Assembly (NCBI GenBank): GCA_963751455.1
Contig: CAVVUN010000012.1
Span: 160,001 to 224,000, forward strand
Origin: Nitrospirota bacterium
GTDB lineage: Bacteria; Nitrospirota; UBA9217
Length of the DNA stretch: 64,000 nucleotides
Direction: 5' to 3'
In this document: one piece after another, positions 15,727-55,416 of the stretch
Numbering within the stretch: position 1 is the stretch's first letter
How the letters are laid out: the number at the start of each line of letters is the position of its first letter
Position numbers and translations under genes: made by a program
The notes under the pieces: generated by a model
The model's input: only the letters and a program-made list of their open reading frames with translations
Told to the model about the DNA's origin: nothing
The model's database searches: none

Positions 15727-17244
15727 CCTTAACGTTGCATAAAAAATCGCTATGCGGCCCGTTGCAATCGGTCGAGATAATGCAACAACCCCTTTTTGAC
15801 TCGTGGATTGGCGTTCATTGTCAGAGTTAGCTTGCCGCCGGGCTGTGTCAGGCGGCCGGCACGCTGTATAAGTGTTCTTCGCAGGGTATTGGGCTCCGTG
15901 AACTCCCAAAGAGCGGCCCGTTTTTCGGTGGTGCCCCGGTCGGGTTCATGCGCGACCATGTGAAGTTCCTTCAGGAGATTGTGCGAGATGATCGCCGACA
16001 TCATGTATAGCTGATTTCCGTGCAATCTTCTCACAGCCACGTAATCCATATTGCACTGGGACTTTAGCTCTCCAAGGATGTTTTCCTGAGAACCGCGGCC
16101 CTGATGGAAGTTCAGGACTTTCTTCACCGTCGTTGTTTTGTTTGTAACGATCACCTTGAAGTCAAACCCGTATTCGTGCGGCGTGAACATATCAAGCTGC
16201 ACCGGCTCTTTTGACTGCTTTTTGGCTTTTTGACGAATAAAAAGAAAGCGGAACCGGCTGTCCCAGCTTTTCGGCTTCCAGGGTGTGTCGAAATAGGAAA
16301 CAACGGAATCGTAACGCCTCCAGCGTTTTTTGGCTTCGATCATGTGTTTGAGTTCGGAGAACCGCTCAAAGGGGACCGAGATGGTGAACTCAATTCCGTC
16401 GCGCTCCAGCGCGCCGACGATTTCATCGCTGAAGAAAGCGCTGTCCATGCGCACTTCGATGACGATATCCGAACAGGTTGCACGCACCTGTTCGATGCAC
16501 GCAAGGATGAACGCCCGGGCGCCGTTGGAATCATGTACGTTACCCGAACGGGGCAGGACGTCAAGGACCATGCCCAACTGAGCGATCATGCAGAAAAGCG
16601 GATAATAGCTTCTCTGCCCTTTTTTCTTTTTGTTGAAGCCTACGGCGGCACCCTCAGCCCATCGGGAGGTCGAGAGCACAGAGCCGTCGAAATCAAGCGT
16701 CACGCGACGAAGCTTCAAACCCTGTATGCGGGAGAGCGACATTTCCCGGCAGAACCGACGAAGATTCAAAATGTCCTTTGCGTCGACCGTCATCAATGCC
16801 CGGCTGATCGTGGAAACGTCCGGCATTTTTCGGAGGCCCAGAAGACGAAGCGCCATAAGGTCGTCCTGATAGTATTCGATGTCGCGGAGTTTCCGATAAC
16901 CCAGCATCAGATGCACGATCAGCACGAGCGTAATGACGTGATTGCCGAAGATGGCGCTCGACGGTAGATGATCAAAGCAGCTTTTCAAGCGGGCTTTCAG
17001 ATTCAGCTTCGTGAAGAATGCCTGAATGATAGCAAGGCCCGCGTAGGAAGTGAGCTGTTGATCCTCGAACTTCAGTTCCGGTATTTTGTGAACGCGGCTT
17101 AGAACCTGTGCTTTACTGGACTTCACTTTCAGTGGCCTCCTGCTTGAGTGAAATAATGATATCGCAGGAGCACTATATCCAATAATGAAGCCTGTTTCCA
17201 GAGGTTTCTGCATATTTTCAAGAAATGTTTATGCAACTACAAGG
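15727..17244 (-). mobile_element. Complete IS1380-family insertion sequence
   Basis: TIRs CCTTAACGTTGCATAAA / CCTTGTAGTTGCATAAA, flanked by a TTAA direct repeat (15723-26, 17245-48). Confidence 0.9.
15750..17126 (-). CDS. IS1380-family DDE transposase
   Basis: LTSYAGL, TLDFDGS, RMDSAFF and RGSQENILGELK motifs; GTG start with AGGAGG RBS. Confidence 0.92.
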   Translation of the reverse strand: MKSSKAQVLSRVHKIPELKFEDQQLTSYAGLAIIQAFFTKLNLKARLKSCFDHLPSSAIFGNHVITLVLIVHLMLGYRKLRDIEYYQDDLMALRLLGLRKMPDVSTISRALMTVDAKDILNLRRFCREMSLSRIQGLKLRRVTLDFDGSVLSTSRWAEGAAVGFNKKKKGQRSYYPLFCMIAQLGMVLDVLPRSGNVHDSNGARAFILACIEQVRATCSDIVIEVRMDSAFFSDEIVGALERDGIEFTISVPFERFSELKHMIEAKKRWRRYDSVVSYFDTPWKPKSWDSRFRFLFIRQKAKKQSKEPVQLDMFTPHEYGFDFKVIVTNKTTTVKKVLNFHQGRGSQENILGELKSQCNMDYVAVRRLHGNQLYMMSAIISHNLLKELHMVAHEPDRGTTEKRAALWEFTEPNTLRRTLIQRAGRLTQPGGKLTLTMNANPRVKKGLLHYLDRLQRAA

Positions 17245-43356: not shown

Positions 43357-44520
43357 ATGAAAAAAAGCCCGCGCGACTTTCTTCAGAAAGCCTGGATGAC
43401 CCTGTCCGAGGCATCTTCATTCTTCCGGCGGAACAACGACCTGACCGCCTCCTCCTCGCTCGCTTTCTCGGCCACCCTTGCGCTCATCCCCGCCCTGTTC
43501 CTGCTTACGTTCCTGCTCGGCGCAATCGTCGGATCGTCCGCCCGGGCGCTCGCGCAAACGCGTGAGTTCATTACCCAGCTGATTCCCGCGTACAGCCAGG
43601 TGATCCTGAAAGAAGTGGACTTTATCGCCCGCCATAAGCGGGCCATCGGCATGCTGAACCTGTTCGTATTGTTCTGGAGCATTACTCCGCTGGTCGCCGA
43701 TATGCGGGTCTCCGTGGGCGCAATCTTCCGGAAAAGACCGACCAGGCCCTTTCTTCTTGAGAAGCTCTTCGACGCCGCCATCAGCATGGTCTTCCTGGTG
43801 GGGCTCGCTGCGGTTGCCGTCGCTGGCGTGGCGTTCACGATCATAAAACGGATCCAGCCGCTGCGGCAGATGCCCGGCAGCCTCAACGATGTTGCCTTCT
43901 TCGTAGTGGTCATTGGCGTTATCTGCGCCCTCTACTTCACCTTCTCGAAGCGCGCACGGTTCTTCCATCTGCTCGCGGGTGCTCTTGCTGCCTCCCTGCT
44001 GTGGTTTGCGCTCCGCCCGGCCTTTCACCTGTTTCTCACTTTTAACCCGGGTTATGGGTTCGCTTTTGGTTCGTTCAAATCGCTGTTCGTCATCTTCATC
44101 TGGATCTACATCTCGATGGCCCTGTTTCTGTTCGGCGCCGAGATCGCGGCAAGCCTCGGGAGGAACGAGTCGGCCAGCCTCAAGGGTCTTCCGGAAGACA
44201 GCACTGTTCCCCCCGGCGTTCTTTATCGCCGCATTGTCCGTTTCGAAAAAGGGAGCGTTGTTTTCAAGGAGGGGGATCCCGGAAGCGGGATGTTCTGTGT
44301 GCTCAAGGGGAGCGTATCAATCCGCAAAGGCGGGACGGAGATCGAGGTGGTTCCTCAAGGCAAGAGCTTTGGCAGCGTGTCATCCGTCCCGCCGTCTGTT
44401 CATCACGTGACCGCCCTGGCGCTCGAGGACCTGGAGCTGGAACATCTTCAGGGCCAAGTCTTTTTCGTTGCATCATCATCTGTGATGACACAGGAAGCAA
44501 TTTCAAGGAATAAGACTTGA
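43357..44520 (+). CDS. YihY/BrkB-family membrane protein with partial cNMP-binding domain
   Basis: YGFAFGSF and LFLFGAEI, then VFKEGDPGSGMFCVLKGSV. The C-terminus is replaced by a repeat element. Confidence 0.85.
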   Translation: MKKSPRDFLQKAWMTLSEASSFFRRNNDLTASSSLAFSATLALIPALFLLTFLLGAIVGSSARALAQTREFITQLIPAYSQVILKEVDFIARHKRAIGMLNLFVLFWSITPLVADMRVSVGAIFRKRPTRPFLLEKLFDAAISMVFLVGLAAVAVAGVAFTIIKRIQPLRQMPGSLNDVAFFVVVIGVICALYFTFSKRARFFHLLAGALAASLLWFALRPAFHLFLTFNPGYGFAFGSFKSLFVIFIWIYISMALFLFGAEIAASLGRNESASLKGLPEDSTVPPGVLYRRIVRFEKGSVVFKEGDPGSGMFCVLKGSVSIRKGGTEIEVVPQGKSFGSVSSVPPSVHHVTALALEDLELEHLQGQVFFVASSSVMTQEAISRNKT

Positions 44521-44525
44521 CACCC
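44449..44525. repeat. ~75-bp GGGTCAAGTC...GACTTGACCC hairpin element; copies at 53392-53465 and 55164-55237
   Basis: Three near-identical copies with terminal IRs. Confidence 0.8.
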
Positions 44526-46753: not shown

Positions 46754-49700
46754 TTAGTGTTCCAAAACAATTCGAATAGTTCTTAGTAGCTCTTCCATTT
46801 TAAATGGTTTCTGTAAAAAGTGAGAACAGTACTGCTTCCAAAGGATTTTGTCATGTTCAACATCATATGCACTCATTAGAATGATCTTTGCATTCTTGTT
46901 AACTTTCGAAATTCTCTGTGCTGTTTCAGGTCCACTAAGTTTCGGCATTAACATGTCCATAATGACAATATCTATATCCGTTGCTCGACTGTATTTTTCA
47001 AGTGCCTCTACGCCATCATACGCGGATACTATTTTATAGCCTAAATTAGACAAAGTAGCTACTATCATCTCATGCAATACGGCTTCATCTTCAACGACAA
47101 GAATTTTCTCTGATCCTGAAAGAGGTTGATTTATATCGACTTCAAGACTCTCTTTTGAAGACAATACTTGAGCTTTGGGAAAGTAAATCTGAAATGTAGT
47201 ACCCTTACTAAGTTCACTAATGACGTTGACGAAGCCGCCCAAACTTTTCATTATCCCATAGACTATAGATAAGCCCAATCCTGTGCCTTTACCGACATCC
47301 TTCGTTGTAAAAAAAGGTTCGAATATCTTTGATGAAACTGACCGATTCATTCCGATGCCTGTATCCGTTACGGATACCATTACGAAATCACCAGGCGGGA
47401 GGGTCGCTCCTTCGACAAGTGCGCTATTGAGCGATTTTAAATTATCCACCGCAATTTCAAACATGCCACCGTTCGGCATAGCATCACGAGCATTCACTGC
47501 CAGATTTAATAGCACTTGTTCAATTTGGGCAATGTCGCCATTTATTGGCCATATATCATCACCCAAATCAGTCTTGATTTTAATAGTTTCAGGGAACACA
47601 CGCGTCAAAAGCTCCATTAACGAGTCGATTATATCTGGAAGATTGACGGTAGTCTGCTCAATACCTCCCCGGTCGAGAGCGCCTTTCCTTGCAAACGCAA
47701 GGAGACTACGTACTAAATTACTTGCACGATCTGTTGTTTCGCTCACCCGCTCAAATATTTGTTTTAAATCTCCTATCTGATCACCAGCGACTTTACTTAA
47801 CGCTAGTGACGTATAACCTGAGATTGTCACAATCAAATTTGAGAAGTCATGTGCAATCCCCCCTGCAAGTTGCCCAACCGCTTCCATCTTTTGAGCTTGA
47901 AGTAGTTGACGTTCCAAATTACGAACTTGATTTTCCTTCTCTTCTCCATACATAATGCTTTTCTCGATTAACTCTTCGTCTGCTCGGCTAAACTTAACTT
48001 GTTGAGCATAATGTAATTTTAGGAAACGAGCTCTTTCGAGTGGAATTAATGTTCTGAGATTATTGCAAATACTTCGTTCATGCTCCATAACTTCAAGGAT
48101 TCGTCTAATCTCTCGCTCTTCATCAGAAATCCAATGATCTATTTGAGGAATCAAATAGTCATGAGTCAATTCGTAAGACGAACCCAGTTGGCCTTGCACA
48201 ACTCTAACGAGACGTTGATATACTAATATGTCGAGAACTGCTTTTATTTGCTCGACCGTAGACATTGGTTCAAGTTGAATTAATAGAGAATCCAAATTGA
48301 GATGTTTTCTTAAACTATCAGGGCTGACGAAACATTTGAGGATTTCACGGGCTACGTCTCTATCAGTATGTCTGAAACTGCTGAGAACATATCCAATGTA
48401 ACTGGATAACAATTTCTCTGCACCACCAAGATCCTTATAAACACCTATGTCGATCTTTTTACACTCGACTGGTAGGGCCTTGAATACAGCAGTGCAGACT
48501 ATCTGAAGCTGAGTCGGCTCGACTCCTTCACGGTCGAGATCAGTTATTACTCCATGAACAAATGAGTCATCACATTGAAGCCCCACAGATTGAGCGGGGC
48601 GTCGGATTGCTACCTCCGCGGAGGATGATTTCAGCGAAGTCAAATGATAGCGATTGTTGAAAACATCAGGGATTATATGAGTTAAGTCGTTTAGACGAAC
48701 GAAATAATCTTCACGAACGGAAAGAAGAACGTGACATTGCACCATTTCATGGTTAATGATTGTTTTTAAAAATTCGCAGATTGGATCAAATGAAGATTGT
48801 TCAAAATCTTTGAACATTTGTTCGACTTGATCAAGCAATAGTACAAATGATTTGCGAGAAAGACGAACTTTATCCAATAAAATATTTGCTGCTTCTTTTG
48901 GCACCGCTACCAACCTATCCAGTGACGTGCTTAGTAATTTGTCACATTCTACAAGAATAGATTCCAATTTTGGATCAGTAAGGCGGCAATAAATAACAGT
49001 ATAGTCGCGGTCAAGGAGTTGGGGAAATACACCTGCTTTAAGTAAAGACGTTTTTCCTACTCCTGACTGCCCAAACAATATTAATAGTTTATGTGCAAGA
49101 AGAGATTGAAGGATAGAAACTGTTTCCTCTTCGCGACCGAAAAAAAGATCCTTATCTTGTACATCGTAATAGTCCAAGAATTTGTAAGGGCATGGATGAA
49201 TAACCGGGGTTTCTGAAGTAGTTGATGTATGTCTTCTCCCTTTTAGGGTATTAACCTCTTTAATCAGCTTTAGTAAAAGTGCCTGTAACTCAGCATAATG
49301 ATTTTTAGATTCGTAAGGAAGTATGGTTATATTATATTTATCTTTGAATAATTTAGGGAGAATTTTCCCGGCGTTTGGAACGAGAGCAAAATGTCTTCTT
49401 CCGAAACCTTTAAAAACTGATACCTGCTCATTTAATATTAAATTCAAATCGGGATCACGAAGCCCATATCCAATAAAAACAAGGGTCTTCATAGTAAAGT
49501 AAGCTGAAAGAGCAGTGCGATATGCAGGATGATGAATAATATCTTGATAGTCGCGATGTGTGAGGATGATTGTATCCACATCATCAACATGACCATGCAT
49601 TTTTAAAATGAAAAATTTCTTGTCGCTTGTCAGTCGTGCAAGTTGTGCAATATTTTTTTGAGTGTAAACTGGGGGAATACCGTTATCCCTGTTTTTCACA

Positions 49701-50077
49701 AAAACCTGCTCCAACAATGTATCATAGTTTGTAGTTAAAATTGCGCTAAAAGGCAGCTGATAAAGCAATTGATGTGTCGCATTTGGTTTTAAAGTTACCG
49801 ATTGAAAGATTCTTTGAATAAAATCTCTGTAGAGAGATTTACCAAGACGTGAACTGCATTCATCCGCCACTTCTGAGAATAAACCATCTTTTAATAGTTC
49901 TCGGAGTTCATCTCCTTCCTGAAATTGAAAAATGTTTTGCTCGCATTCTTTTATTAGTAGCTCAAGAAGTTCCTTCCAAGTGGGTAGGCCCGACGCAACA
50001 GACAGCCCCGAGCCGACCACTGCTACAGCCTCGCCTGAAAACAGAGCATCTAATAAATCTTTAGGAAAGCTTTGCAC
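46754..50077 (-). CDS. SIR2-like domain - STAND (nSTAND1-type) NTPase - histidine kinase - receiver fusion
   Basis: GSGLS/TTNYD/KMHG/FIGYG; GQSGVGKTS/LDQVEQ/YELTHD; AHDFSN/NARDAM/GKGTGLGL; VEDE/DMLMP/KPF. Confidence 0.9.
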   Translation of the reverse strand: MQSFPKDLLDALFSGEAVAVVGSGLSVASGLPTWKELLELLIKECEQNIFQFQEGDELRELLKDGLFSEVADECSSRLGKSLYRDFIQRIFQSVTLKPNATHQLLYQLPFSAILTTNYDTLLEQVFVKNRDNGIPPVYTQKNIAQLARLTSDKKFFILKMHGHVDDVDTIILTHRDYQDIIHHPAYRTALSAYFTMKTLVFIGYGLRDPDLNLILNEQVSVFKGFGRRHFALVPNAGKILPKLFKDKYNITILPYESKNHYAELQALLLKLIKEVNTLKGRRHTSTTSETPVIHPCPYKFLDYYDVQDKDLFFGREEETVSILQSLLAHKLLILFGQSGVGKTSLLKAGVFPQLLDRDYTVIYCRLTDPKLESILVECDKLLSTSLDRLVAVPKEAANILLDKVRLSRKSFVLLLDQVEQMFKDFEQSSFDPICEFLKTIINHEMVQCHVLLSVREDYFVRLNDLTHIIPDVFNNRYHLTSLKSSSAEVAIRRPAQSVGLQCDDSFVHGVITDLDREGVEPTQLQIVCTAVFKALPVECKKIDIGVYKDLGGAEKLLSSYIGYVLSSFRHTDRDVAREILKCFVSPDSLRKHLNLDSLLIQLEPMSTVEQIKAVLDILVYQRLVRVVQGQLGSSYELTHDYLIPQIDHWISDEEREIRRILEVMEHERSICNNLRTLIPLERARFLKLHYAQQVKFSRADEELIEKSIMYGEEKENQVRNLERQLLQAQKMEAVGQLAGGIAHDFSNLIVTISGYTSLALSKVAGDQIGDLKQIFERVSETTDRASNLVRSLLAFARKGALDRGGIEQTTVNLPDIIDSLMELLTRVFPETIKIKTDLGDDIWPINGDIAQIEQVLLNLAVNARDAMPNGGMFEIAVDNLKSLNSALVEGATLPPGDFVMVSVTDTGIGMNRSVSSKIFEPFFTTKDVGKGTGLGLSIVYGIMKSLGGFVNVISELSKGTTFQIYFPKAQVLSSKESLEVDINQPLSGSEKILVVEDEAVLHEMIVATLSNLGYKIVSAYDGVEALEKYSRATDIDIVIMDMLMPKLSGPETAQRISKVNKNAKIILMSAYDVEHDKILWKQYCSHFLQKPFKMEELLRTIRIVLEH

Positions 50078-50458: not shown

Positions 50459-51178
50459 TCAAATGTTCGCTTGTAAGGTAATGAAATCTTCATCCAAATT
50501 TAATTTGTTCCTAAATTGCTTAACTCGGTTGGGCATGCCCGACAAATCTGAAAAAGTATCGATAAACTGGATTGCTGTCTCAACACCCCACTTGGCACAA
50601 GAATAACTCATGCATTTCATAGAAATTAAGTGTGCACCTTCATCGGCAAAAGGGCTACACTTAAATCTTGAAAGTATATCCTTTAATTCAATTCGTTTAT
50701 CTTCAGGCTCAAAATCCCAGTTTGGCTTAAAATGAGTTAATTCGTTTCTTATTATTATCAGACAATTGGCATCCTTATAAACCTGCTCCTTCTCAAAATC
50801 GTTATTAATATTCATAATGTTCAACGCCTTAAGATATTTTTTTAGAAGTGGCATAGCTTCTATTCCATTCCGGCCCCAGAATTTTTTATCGTAATTCTCA
50901 GTCTTTCCTCTTAACAGGCCGCCATGGTCAATGAATAATTCATTTATGTTAGCTTCGAGTGCAGCGGTAGATGCCATTATGGAAGCGCTTGCGTATGATC
51001 TAATCTCAGTAAAAAACTCACCGAATGGCTGTCCCAAGTTCTCGTGCTCAATTACTCCCACTCTGCGAGCAAAGAGCACTGCCGATATTAAGTGTTGTAA
51101 GATGAAGCTGCTGATAGAACGGCCATGAGCTTCTACTTTGAGCATCGGACGCACTGAATTAATATTCATTTTTTCCAT
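50459..51178 (-). CDS. Putative HEPN-like protein
   Basis: ALEANIN and RNELTH (Rx4H) motif; AT-rich. Confidence 0.55.
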   Translation of the reverse strand: MEKMNINSVRPMLKVEAHGRSISSFILQHLISAVLFARRVGVIEHENLGQPFGEFFTEIRSYASASIMASTAALEANINELFIDHGGLLRGKTENYDKKFWGRNGIEAMPLLKKYLKALNIMNINNDFEKEQVYKDANCLIIIRNELTHFKPNWDFEPEDKRIELKDILSRFKCSPFADEGAHLISMKCMSYSCAKWGVETAIQFIDTFSDLSGMPNRVKQFRNKLNLDEDFITLQANI

Positions 51179-51247: not shown

Positions 51248-51988
51248 TTACTGCACCTGCGGCGAAGCAGGCTGGATAACTTCATCTTTCGGTTTTGGCT
51301 TTGCTTTTCTTTTTCTCGTGATCTTTACATCACCGATATCTTCCCAGGTTTCCTTAGAGATCATCTTCCTGATGTTATCCACCAATTCCTGCTCATCCAC
51401 TCTGATGCCGTGACTATTTTTTAAGCACGCCCGAATTACTTTTAACGTACTTTCATGAAATACGGCACGGACGATACTCCTTGGCGAAAGAGTTTTTACT
51501 TTTTCATAAAATTGTTCTATCTCTCCCTTCAGAACGCTTTTCCTATGCAGGATTCCCAGTACCTGTGCAGCCTCTTTAATATCGCACTCTTTAAGATCGA
51601 CTGACAGAACGAGATCACTCTGTATCCCTTCATCAAAACTTAAATGGTAAAGCTGCCAATAAATACCGTTCGTTAATAAGACCCATGGAACTCCTGAATT
51701 GGCTGCATAGTTTTCTGCTTGTTCTATATGTTTTTCTTTCAAAGCTATTCCGGCTTGCTTAATTTCAATGAAAAATTTCACTTTCCCGTTAAGCTTGATC
51801 GCATAGTCTACATTTCTTTCCTTAACGACATGCTCTCTCGATATTTCAGTAAACACATCGTAACCCAAAACATCTTCGAAAAATTTATTAATACGTGTTG
51901 AGGTCTCCGCTTCATTAATGCCTTGATCGTGCGCTTGTTGAAAGATCGGCAGAAATTTTTTCAAGTCCTTCAAAATATCGATAGGCAT
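51248..51988 (-). CDS. Type I restriction enzyme HsdR N-terminal-like PD-(D/E)xK nuclease
   Basis: NEAET, LGYD, VDYAI..IEIK, QAENYA and LTNG motifs. Confidence 0.85.
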   Translation of the reverse strand: MPIDILKDLKKFLPIFQQAHDQGINEAETSTRINKFFEDVLGYDVFTEISREHVVKERNVDYAIKLNGKVKFFIEIKQAGIALKEKHIEQAENYAANSGVPWVLLTNGIYWQLYHLSFDEGIQSDLVLSVDLKECDIKEAAQVLGILHRKSVLKGEIEQFYEKVKTLSPRSIVRAVFHESTLKVIRACLKNSHGIRVDEQELVDNIRKMISKETWEDIGDVKITRKRKAKPKPKDEVIQPASPQVQ

Positions 51989-53375: not shown

Positions 53376-53563
53376 TCTTCAGAGCATCTTCAGGGTCAAG
53401 TCTTTTTCGTTGCATCATCATCGTTGATGACACCGGAGTCGATTTCAAGGAGAAAGACTTGACCCTGTGCCTCTGCTCCGTTCGCCCTCGGCTTGTCGAA
53501 GGACAAACGGAGGATTTTTTAACAGCGGCAAACGAGTGACCGATATTTTATTTCAATTATCTT

Positions 53564-54987: not shown

Positions 54988-55237
54988 GAGATCGCGGCGA
55001 GCCTCGGTAAGAACGAGTCGGCCAGCCTCAAGATCCTTCCGGAAGACAATACTGCTCCGCCCGGAGTTCCCGATCGCCGCATTGTCCGTTTCGAAAAAGG
55101 AAGCGTTGTTTTCAAGGAGGGGGATCCCGGAAGCGGGATGTTCTGTGTGCTCAGAACATCTTCAGGGCCAAGTCTTTTTCGTTGCATCATCATCTGTGAT
55201 GACACCGGAGTCGATTTCAAAGAGAAACACTTGACCC
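54988..55237 (+). pseudogene. Degenerate duplicate of the yihY 3' region
   Basis: Near-identical to 44140-44307 followed by 44441-44521, with an internal deletion. Confidence 0.85.
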
Positions 55238-55416
55238 TATTTATTGCGAAGAGGATGCATGAAGGGACGAAGATAATCCAGAGTTGTTTTTTCGGATTTC
55301 AGTATAAACGCCGATAAAAATGCCGCCATGTTAAATGTAAGGATCTGACCATATGATGTTTGCTCAAATAAAGAGCACGCTCCTGATCGGAGCGGGCTCT
55401 TTTGTTATAACCCTCA

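Follow-up and report, generated by a model that had tools for sequence, protein, structure and literature searches.

The gene at positions 46754..50077 on the minus strand of the window, by which is meant the whole 64,000-nucleotide stretch of a Nitrospirota contig analysed here, encodes a 1107-aa protein combining a SIR2 domain, a STAND NTPase and a complete hybrid histidine kinase in a single chain. Judged by sequence comparison, it is a member of a small family, the count of which is a lower bound, in which one SIR2 clade is fused to CckA-type kinases. We give roughly an even chance to the reading that the gene is a single-gene mobile anti-phage NADase of the Avs5/NLR type, with a captured hybrid kinase serving as a bait or guard sensor in place of the repeat domain. 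No description of a SIR2-STAND-kinase fusion was found in the open full-text literature searched (SIR2 or sirtuin with kinase, receiver or STAND; nSTAND1), in line with an earlier note, made from the sequence alone, that did not know this architecture as a described system. One survey names TPR-like repeats, WD40 propellers and FGE-like domains as STAND sensors in its accessible text (PMC13581612). Its supplements appear to be without domain annotation, since the word 'kinase' occurs nowhere in them, and the family could still be among its 359,879 sequences.

Domain organization of the protein

The open reading frame starts with GTG and contains no internal stops. All Pfam domain calls for the product lie above the curated cut-offs, and its parts are arranged as follows.

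46754..50077, minus strand: whole gene, 1107 aa; SIR2, nSTAND1, helical bundle and long helix, HisKA, HATPase_c and receiver, in this order
49244..50077, minus strand: SIR2 domain, aa 1-278 (Pfam SIR2_2 at 112-252, E 1e-29)
48104..49189, minus strand: nSTAND1 NTPase module, aa 297-658 (Pfam nSTAND1, E 6e-44)
47876..48103, minus strand: post-STAND helical bundle leading into a continuous predicted helix, aa 698-762 (DSSP on the AlphaFold2 model)
47681..47875, minus strand: HisKA/DHp domain, aa 735-799, with phospho-acceptor H743 (Pfam HisKA, E 4e-7)
47171..47539, minus strand: HATPase_c catalytic domain (CA) of CckA type, aa 847-969 (Pfam, E 1e-20)
46775..47104, minus strand: receiver, aa 992-1101 (Pfam Response_reg, E 6e-20)

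Pfam and motif inspection confirmed what the earlier note had read from the ORF, a SIR2-STAND-histidine kinase-receiver chain with intact motifs. The SIR2 domain contains GSGLS, TTNYD (N117) and KMHG (H161), the NTPase module Walker A GQSGVGKTS (K342) and Walker B LLLDQVE (D416), the kinase the H-box AHDF (H743) together with the N, G1, F and G2 boxes, and the receiver D997/E998, D1041, S1069 and K1090. The STAND module is of the nSTAND1 type (151.6 bits), the nSTAND3 model reaching 21.8 bits, below its cut-off of 27.2 (Pfam). No PAS or repeat family was detected by Pfam in the 1107 residues, and the protein has no TM helix, because the highest 19-residue Kyte-Doolittle mean is only 1.39; the claimed lack of TM or PAS input is thereby borne out. 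The same holds for the AT-richness of the ORF: GC content is 0.36-0.43 in all five gene segments (GC3 0.27-0.38), compared with 0.50-0.53 for the contigs of the genome.

In the AlphaFold2 model of the whole protein (mean pLDDT 88, pTM 0.55) one predicted helix (aa 698-762) runs from the post-STAND bundle into DHp helix 1. A Foldseek search gave a match to EfAvs5 (9jap, E 3.9e-14). The PDB profile matches of the SIR2 domain include ThsA (6lhx, 6e-31), KomC and DSR2, and its superposition on DSR2 (8wyc_C) gave a Z of 26.6 and an rmsd of 2.6 over 254 residues. By sequence, no solved relative of the STAND part was found (best E 0.11), and an ESM Atlas search with aa 1-800 returned no usable match. 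The catalytic domain superimposes on CckA (5idm_B) with a Z of 22.6 and an rmsd of 2.0 over 162 residues, and the kinase part is 36-39% identical to CckA structures; the NCBIfam CckA model scores 363 bits, under its cut-off of 1000, and the protein stays below every equivalog cut-off listed. PADLOC matched 21 families, with no Avs model among them. We infer that the SIR2 domain may be an effector of the ThsA/DSR2/KomC NADase type and the nSTAND1 module an oligomerisation switch; the HisKA/DHp domain is a candidate sensing surface.

Misassembly was considered and rejected. It is very unlikely because four other complete, independent homologues have every junction in common with the window protein (P0003, 47% identical; P0004, 46%; P0005, 44%; P0122, 46%), and GC is uniformly low across the segments. 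A recent fusion with a kinase of the same genome was likewise dismissed, the best native kinase being only 39% identical over the kinase-receiver part.

Family, phylogeny and variant architectures

The kinase-fused SIR2 domains (n = 15) form one clade with a support of 100/99, and so do the nine kinase-fused nSTAND1 copies (SH-aLRT 100). Monophyly of the 18 kinase cores was rejected (p-AU 0.0005): this family has changed its kinase repeatedly, the cores are of more than one origin, and the tree places several of them among ordinary PAS kinases. In P0127, SIR2-nSTAND1 was joined to a kinase a second time, independently. Leaving kinase fusions aside, the closest relatives are SIR2-nSTAND1 proteins of about 29% identity ending in FGS, HEAT or HSP70 domains; the kinase therefore occupies the C-terminal slot, which upholds the earlier placing of the hybrid kinase in the sensor position. 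Among the best matches listed, members of this SIR2 clade always end in a kinase, fragments excepted.

The domains differ in how far they can be spared. The earlier note had noticed neither that STAND is dispensable nor the repeated replacement of the kinase and the hypervariable DHp region of one branch. STAND is absent from several members, most of which keep the post-STAND bundle or helix; its LERAR-type motif was found in P0007, P0009, P0010, P0013, G463 and G036. The receiver is absent from three Nitrospira clusters (of 18, 10 and 2 members) and from P0127, and PAS domains lie between the N-terminal domain and the DHp in P0006, P0011 and P0125. T[TS]NYD and KxHG are kept in 20/20 representatives that include the SIR2 domain, the phospho-His in 19/20 and the receiver Asp in 14/14. 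Broken or shortened copies also occur: a frameshift in G036, three 545-aa alleles, the probably split P0239/P0006 and the SIR2-only P0240. General decay of the kinase was tried as an explanation and discarded: on an ordinary-kinase profile full-length members score 235-371 bits, the held-out background 303-424 and the best native kinases at most 350; clearly low scores are confined to the Nitrospira cores (156 and 179 bits).

Genomic context and mobility

Two genes lie upstream of the fusion gene in the window.

50459..51178, minus strand: upstream neighbour, 239 aa, no Pfam family, carrying an RNxxxH motif
51248..51988, minus strand: upstream neighbour, 246 aa, with an HSDR_N nuclease domain (restriction-enzyme N-terminal; Pfam HSDR_N_2, E 2e-8)

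The RNxxxH motif of the 239-aa product is one that we take to resemble those of HEPN RNases, and an Atlas match (HEPN_RiboL-PSP at 0.82) is a lead for this protein. The 246-aa product matches REase_MTase_IIG in PADLOC (E 2e-10). The fusion gene stands downstream of this HSDR_N gene, within a low-GC stretch, and its own neighbourhood is a weak candidate for a defence island.

The homologues add to this picture, the neighbourhood comparison comprising five loci with DNA, two of them orthologous. At L001 the gene lies directly upstream of Drt8 (DRT8 reverse transcriptase; PADLOC E 2e-117), in an element of ~19.9 kb that carries an integrase and a Toprim-AAA primase and is flanked by the 3' end of tRNA-Pro, repeated perfectly over 46 bp. 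At L081, where ~500 bp of downstream DNA are covered, a D12 adenine methylase gene comes next. The Nitrospira copies are inserted between PilZ and cstA. Among nine further genomes both anchors of this slot were found in seven, two of which have it empty (~495 bp) and five with inserts of 2.9-8.9 kb; PADLOC matches were obtained in three of the five inserts (HEC-08 at 4e-70 with PDC-M30A/B; PDC-M04A at 4e-15; a GajA/Old-type ATPase at 1e-24). The defence leaning of the earlier note thus gains support from the closest SIR2 relatives and from these defence-type neighbours. The window at 36-61 kb and the DNA around the four homologues yielded no further kinase or receiver gene, which makes none at 5/5 loci.

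The family is patchy, horizontally mobile and spread over unrelated microbes. It was found in 2/134 genomes of the genus of the Nitrospira copies, in 1/115 of the family of G503 and in 2/401 of the window's own phylum (G000 and G036). No family-level match appeared in 401 genomes of the phylum of G500, where one match reached 179 bits compared with 375-474 for full-domain members, nor in the phyla of G502 and G501 (401 genomes each). Pattern scans of genome and metagenome contigs gave a complete family gene in at least two of at least 160 loci. Between the G463 and G036 copies dS is 0.14-0.22, compared with 0.95-2.0 for six neighbouring genes.

Other vehicles were looked for as well. Viral carriage is not supported by IMG/VR, in which 44 SIR2 loci were found, the best at 36% identity and none at family level. 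For plasmids, 345 records gave low-identity partial matches, none covering 80% of aa 1-725. An integron cassette is not indicated, with no attC-like site seen by eye between the upstream genes and no Rfam family in the window at 42.5-57.5 kb.

Selection and the variable DHp patch

The G463/G036 copies, the one DNA pair from which dN/dS was obtained, gave 0.16 for SIR2, 0.21 for the linker, 1.05 for the DHp with the start of CA and 0.60 for the CA core, and the contrast between SIR2 and kinase substitutions in this pair is significant (Fisher p 7e-5). In Nitrospira, then, SIR2 is under purifying selection and the DHp region is not, a signal that belongs to this STAND-less, receiver-less branch only. 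Three close Nitrospira alleles differ at 2/130 sites of the CA core, at 8-11 of 60-64 DHp sites and at 7-18 of the next 40 residues; ordinary kinase pairs with a CA core difference below 5% (five pairs, three independent groups) have maxima of 4.7% and 5.1% for the DHp and the next stretch. At aa 416-455 of the Nitrospira alleles there are 20 non-synonymous and 3 synonymous changes, which does not establish a dN/dS above 1. The G463 clade has Asn in place of the phospho-His, and three Nitrospira alleles end before the G2 box. In the window protein the DHp together with aa 801-846 is the least conserved stretch by segment identities. In six full-length members the DHp patch exceeds that of background kinases in variability by a moderate margin only (identity 19% vs 39%; CA core 49% vs 62%). 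Relaxed selection or recombination would account for a DHp dN/dS of about 1 just as well as diversifying selection would.

Proposed mechanism and alternative explanations

If the captured kinase is a bait or guard sensor, the resting protein would be a dimer held by the DHp, its SIR2 inactive. The DHp would be moved either by a phage protein binding or draining kinases of the host or when a phage alters the nucleotide or phosphorylation state of the kinase; the continuous helix would pass this movement to STAND, which would oligomerise and bring the SIR2 domains into an active assembly, so that NAD+ would be destroyed and the infection aborted. In STAND-less members the DHp helix may act directly on SIR2. 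The bait or guard reading is supported by the SIR2 domain, which is closest to the defence NADases ThsA, KomC and DSR2. According to the accessible texts, the FGS in the C-terminal slot of effector-nSTAND1 proteins is a proposed invader sensor (PMC8195603), the phage protein PIT4 binds to histidine kinase domains (PMC10714779) and the SIR2-STAND protein EfAvs5 is activated by filament formation (PMC11897194). Against a bait speaks the full-length form, in which all kinase and receiver residues are intact: a bait and nothing more could do without them. They would, however, also be intact after a recent recapture from genes of the host. Moreover, an N-terminal domain followed by a helix and DHp, sometimes with PAS, is equally how an input domain is normally arranged, and the G036 copy is frameshifted.

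The logic of Detocs could instead operate within one chain, which we regard as unlikely: STAND or an inserted PAS would sense, H743 would autophosphorylate and pass the phosphate to D1041, and the receiver, once phosphorylated, would release or cluster SIR2, the protein still being an anti-phage NADase. The near-complete conservation of His and Asp argues for it, the predicted helix from the STAND bundle to the DHp is the usual input-to-kinase link, and Detocs and Ambrosia, as presented in the accessible text of their reports, show kinase-to-receiver phosphotransfer gating a defence (10.1101/2023.01.24.525353; 10.1101/2025.09.30.679545). Phosphorelay-gated NAD depletion, one of the two options of the earlier note, may apply to the full-length protein, but it cannot be general because members lacking the receiver exist, and one clade lacks the His. 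Furthermore, the receiver is not joined to the effector as in DtcC, no buffer receiver gene lies nearby, the STAND itself lacks a ligand-binding repeat, and a fixed contact co-evolved between receiver and SIR2 is made less likely by the different origins of the kinase cores. The other option, a signalling kinase in which SIR2, with or without STAND, reads NAD+/ADP-ribose or infection and sends a non-lethal alarm to the host network by phosphotransfer, is quite improbable. SIR2 does occupy the usual input position, stacked with PAS domains in some members, several family cores are placed among ordinary PAS kinases, and the 68 matches to the kinase-core profile in the window genome mean that partners could be remote. 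This option is weakened, however, by the lack of a cognate regulator near 5/5 loci and by the constraint on the Nitrospira SIR2 in proteins whose kinase is missing the receiver, the G2 box or, in one clade, the phospho-His; the NADase residues are kept throughout, and the genes are mobile, patchy and found in defence slots. Of the two options, the evidence favours SIR2 as effector.

Highly doubtful is a chimera that is selfish or nearly neutral: a mobile toxin cassette made of SIR2(-STAND) would recombine again and again onto kinase genes of the host, and the kinase would sense no phage but serve only as a scaffold for dimerisation or as a cap resembling an antitoxin. The broken or shortened copies, the DHp dN/dS of about 1, compatible with relaxed selection, and the rarity of the family would suit it. 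On the other side, several lineages have all five parts together at 44-47% identity, with junctions in frame, no member of the SIR2 clade among the best matches listed ends in a non-kinase domain (fragments excepted), the fusion arose a second time in P0127, and close alleles vary mainly in one patch and hardly at all in the CA core.

Some plant NLRs carry integrated decoys, that is, repeatedly captured copies of host signalling domains that are possible targets of pathogens. It is a tentative suggestion, on balance doubtful, that the family is a bacterial counterpart, a NADase-armed STAND family repeatedly capturing host hybrid kinases, with the DHp surface as bait for phage proteins by which two-component signalling is attacked or hijacked. 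If so, bacteria would keep watch over their phosphorelay network as plants do over kinases, and the arms race would be fought on the hypervariable DHp patch, a pointer to undiscovered phage kinase inhibitors. More broadly, a working kinase in the STAND sensor slot would mean a new kind of infection sensing, through the cell's own signalling hardware and not a phage structural protein, and would link two-component signalling to NAD-depletion immunity within a single gene. The natural deletion series (with and without STAND, receiver and phospho-His) already tells which parts are expendable, and the Nitrospira allele series is a possible route to a phage ligand.

Comparison with known systems

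The protein resembles Avs5 (AVAST type 5), in which, by the accessible text on EfAvs5, an N-terminal SIR2 and a central STAND are followed by a C-terminal module in the sensor position (PMC11897194). It differs in having nSTAND1, whereas the STAND of Avs5 is given there as nSTAND3 (STAND NTPase 3 family), and in its HisKA-HATPase-receiver end, the Avs5 sensor clustering with SAMD9 in the accessible text of the survey (PMC13581612); some of its relatives, moreover, have no STAND. With the effector-nSTAND1-FGS conflict proteins (Kaur et al. 2021, PMC8195603), as far as the accessible text describes them, it shares the NTPase clade and the order effector-NTPase-C-terminal module. Unlike them, it has a complete hybrid kinase in place of the FGS lectin, with no FGS, TPR, HEAT or WD40 by Pfam, and the kinase-fused SIR2 and STAND domains form clades of their own; the accessible text of PMC8195603 mentions no histidine kinase in that slot.

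If the defence reading holds, the combination of two-component parts with a metabolite-destroying effector recalls Detocs. By the accessible text of its report (10.1101/2023.01.24.525353), Detocs consists of three genes (DtcA TPR-kinase, DtcB receiver and DtcC receiver-effector), and its named effectors are PNP, nuclease, TOPRIM and TM/hydrolase; the window protein is one chain with STAND and SIR2, it contains no TPR family by Pfam, and in its family the receiver is dispensable. No Dtc model was among its PADLOC matches, from a library that may lack Detocs models. A fusion of a histidine kinase with a Schlafen RNase in ParA-effector systems, known from computation only, also joins a kinase to a toxic effector in a predicted immune setting, but the accessible text gives it another effector, a required ParA partner gene and no STAND (10.64898/2026.10.19.760177).

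ThsA, DSR2 and KomC have the closest solved SIR2 domains by sequence and fold, with the same catalytic Asn and His motifs. The PADLOC match to ThsA, however, covers aa 2-235 only, no SLOG/STALD or Macro domain is matched, and no TIR (ThsB-like) gene was found by Pfam among the nine other window genes scanned. The Dsr matches end by aa 278 and the structural alignments span ~255-270 residues, with no match to the DSR C-terminal domain, in contrast to DSR1/DSR2, which have a long helical middle and C-terminal sensor domains. The likeness to plant integrated-decoy NLRs is one of analogy, their integrated part not being homologous to the kinase here. Like the hybrid kinases of the CckA/ShkA/VirA type, the protein has the order DHp-CA-receiver with all boxes intact; unlike them, it has no TM, PAS or periplasmic input, and its kinase is orphan, mobile and placed behind an NADase-type domain.

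Domain layout and predicted structure

The gene had been described in the earlier note as a four-domain fusion of SIR2, STAND, histidine kinase, and receiver with intact motifs, and this description is confirmed: all its Pfam domains score above the curated cut-offs and every named catalytic motif is found.

Window 46754..50077, minus strand: fusion gene, ORF of 1107 aa
aa 112-252: SIR2_2
aa 297-658: nSTAND1
aa 735-799: HisKA
aa 847-969: HATPase_c
aa 992-1101: receiver

The 1107-aa protein has no TM helix, and Pfam finds neither a PAS nor a repeat family in it. Its AlphaFold2 model (64-row alignment, pLDDT 88) has a pTM of 0.55, which makes the domain packing uncertain; a single predicted helix (aa 698-762) leads from the bundle following STAND through the phospho-acceptor His743. 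The top Foldseek match is CckA, with EfAvs5 next. In structural alignments, the SIR2 domain matches DSR2, KomC, and ThsA (Z 25-27) and the catalytic domain matches CckA (Z 22.6), in agreement with a profile search of solved structures.

Family members and rarity

Complete homologues of the same layout are P0003, labelled Acidobacteria (47%), P0004 (46%), P0005 (44%), and P0122 from locus L001 of a Nitrospirae MAG (46%); the fusion is a family and no accident. P0292 matches at 52% across aa 1-944 with no receiver seen, its sequence probably being cut short. P0008 and P0124 are partial members, and P0239 and P0006 are probably pieces of a single gene that carries a PAS insert, as their contigs are equal in length and their ranges complementary. 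At least eight SIR2-kinase proteins lack STAND (P0007, P0009-P0013, P0125, P0126), and 588-aa SIR2-kinases with neither STAND nor receiver form at least three clusters, of 18, 10, and 2 sequences, one member being labelled Nitrospira sp. All family counts are lower bounds, the homologue searches scoring only candidates that share most words. P0126 (720 aa, SIR2-kinase-receiver), on a 3055-bp contig, is labelled Candidatus Hodarchaeales archaeon, and may reflect transfer to Asgard archaea or else mis-binning.

The family gene is rare: it occurs in 2/134 genomes of the Nitrospira genus g27, in 2/401 of the phylum to which the window belongs, and in one of the 115 from the family of genome G503; three other samples of 401 genomes each contained no family-level member.

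History of the parts

Fifteen SIR2 domains fused to kinases make up a single clade (100/99), in which STAND-less members occupy three places; nine kinase-fused STANDs also group in a single clade. Most STAND-less members retain the helical bundle that follows STAND, which suggests that these members lost the NTPase core. The cores of the kinases are not monophyletic: a 124-row quick tree has eight changes, at least two of them forced by starred branches, and monophyly has a p-AU of 0.0005 on a 48-row quick tree, although long branches could affect both results. Among relatives with no kinase, the nearest carry FGS (lectin), HEAT, or HSP70 as their terminal domain. P0127 (923 aa) is a separate SIR2-nSTAND1-histidine kinase fusion of another kinase type and without a receiver; in the SIR2 and STAND trees it groups with FGS-bearing proteins, independently of the main clade. 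Taken together, these trees and domain ends argue that hybrid kinases were attached to a conserved SIR2(-STAND) module on more than one occasion, in the C-terminal slot proposed as the sensor position of nSTAND1 proteins in the available text of PMC8195603.

Three SIR2-nSTAND1 proteins (P0130, P0136, P0140) terminate with HSP70, and a Trans_reg_C winged-helix domain is present in many nSTAND1 proteins (P0158 and kin); these are further host housekeeping or signalling domains on the nSTAND1 scaffold.

Genomic context and mobility

Context was examined at five loci with DNA (L001, L081, the window, and the Nitrospira genomes G463 and G036), none of which has a further kinase or receiver gene in the DNA flanking the fusion gene. 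The L001 gene lies in an element of ~19.9 kb that is delimited by a perfect repeat, 46 bp long, of the end of tRNA-Pro; the element also carries an integrase, a Toprim-AAA primase and, directly downstream of the fusion gene, a Drt8 reverse transcriptase. This element looks like a phage satellite with defence cargo. In L081 a D12 methylase follows the fusion gene at the contig end.

L001:7845-20810 with L227:1-9179: tRNA-Pro element of L001
L219:7213-10300, L172:11561-14781, L228-L236: PilZ-cstA slot entries

In the window, the focal gene has a GC content of 0.36-0.43 in every segment, compared with 0.50-0.53 for the genome contigs, and the closest native kinase is only 39% identical to its own; it was therefore probably acquired as one unit. 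Upstream of it are a nuclease gene (HSDR_N) and an ORF of 239 aa (50459-51178, minus strand) whose RNxxxH motif resembles that of HEPN RNases. This ORF matches no Pfam or NCBIfam family and groups with three unnamed clusters in the ESM Atlas (0.96-0.97); it is possibly a stand-alone defence nuclease. A 166-nt segment in two copies (91%; 44140-44305 and 54988-55153) flanks the 10.8-kb block containing the fusion gene. After each copy comes a palindromic repeat from an 88-nt family (44437-44524, 53379-53466, 55151-55238), whose arm has matches elsewhere in the genome too. The duplication may mark where an acquired block begins and ends, or be a REP/MITE-like element. A 487-aa ORF at 15750-17213 (minus strand) resembles an IS1380-type transposase.

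The G463 and G036 copies are flanked by PilZ genes and cstA. Both anchors are present in 7/9 further g27 genomes fetched; two of these seven slots are empty and five hold inserts, three with PADLOC matches. The slot is variable, containing HEC-08, PDC-M30/DUF5131, DUF3800, an Old/GajA-type ATPase, and small toxin-antitoxin-like ORFs. The single ORF scanned in each of the L234 and L236 inserts had no PADLOC match; two unassigned slot ORFs, of 443 aa (L234:6108-7439) and 586 aa (L236:774-2534), are candidate defence genes.

Selection and variation

Between G463 and G036, dS is 0.14-0.22 in the fusion gene, far below the 0.95-2.0 of six neighbours, which indicates recent horizontal transfer. In this pair dN/dS is low for SIR2 (0.16) and the linker (0.21), and higher for the catalytic core (0.60) and for the DHp together with the first part of the catalytic domain (1.05); SIR2 vs kinase gives a Fisher p of 7e-5. 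The phospho-His is replaced by Asn in G463 and retained in G036, where a one-base frameshift precedes the kinase. Three of the 14 aligned alleles end short of the G2 box. Three close alleles differ at 2/130 sites of the catalytic core, at 8-11 of 60-64 in the DHp, and at 7-18 of the following 40 residues, compared with near or <5% in the latter two stretches of ordinary kinase pairs (n=5) at like core distance. Among six full-length members, too, aa 801-846 is the least conserved segment (19%), its excess variation over background kinases being modest. SIR2 appears as the part kept by selection and the kinase as the part replaced, trimmed, and diversified.

Proposed mode of action

This pattern and the genomic contexts make it probable, across the defence readings, that the fusion is an anti-phage NADase; the chances are even that the kinase is its sensor. 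At rest, the dimer would be held by the DHp. Disturbance of the kinase module by a phage would travel along the long helix to STAND, which would oligomerise, with loss of NAD+. Beyond the domain layout, we infer every step. The output is modelled on EfAvs5, whose SIR2 is activated by filament formation and inhibited by ATP according to the accessible text of PMC11897194, and the input on the phage protein PIT4, which binds to kinase domains (PMC10714779, available portion). It is rather doubtful that the fusion is a bacterial NLR with an integrated decoy.

The earlier note had offered either phosphorelay-gated NAD+ depletion or a sensor signalling through two-component chemistry. This reading is partly supported: its NADase effector gains support from the selection on SIR2; a phosphorelay inside the protein, resembling that of Detocs (10.1101/2023.01.24.525353, as far as its available text goes), is unlikely, and a signalling input to the host somewhat more so. 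The phospho-His is present in 19/20 and the receiver Asp in 14/14 representatives, which counts against viewing the kinase as dead throughout the family. Least probable is a selfish chimera.

Relation to known systems

The focal protein belongs to neither Thoeris nor DSR, nor to Detocs, nor, by the available text of 10.1101/2025.09.30.679545, to Ambrosia. The SIR2-STAND-kinase fusion is not described in the accessible parts of PMC7159879, PMC9503650, PMC11564622, and PMC13092281. The terms 'two-component', 'receiver', and 'response regulator' are absent from the main text of a 2026 STAND survey (PMC13581612), the available portion of which names TPR, WD40, and FGE as sensors; a kinase-Schlafen fusion is noted in the accessible part of a 2026 preprint. 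The layout is that of nSTAND1 proteins, but their FGS or repeat end is absent here. The focal protein would work in a similar way to Avs5, but differs from it in STAND type and sensor and is therefore not a member. The hybrid-kinase fusion would be a new variation among SIR2-STAND immune receptors.
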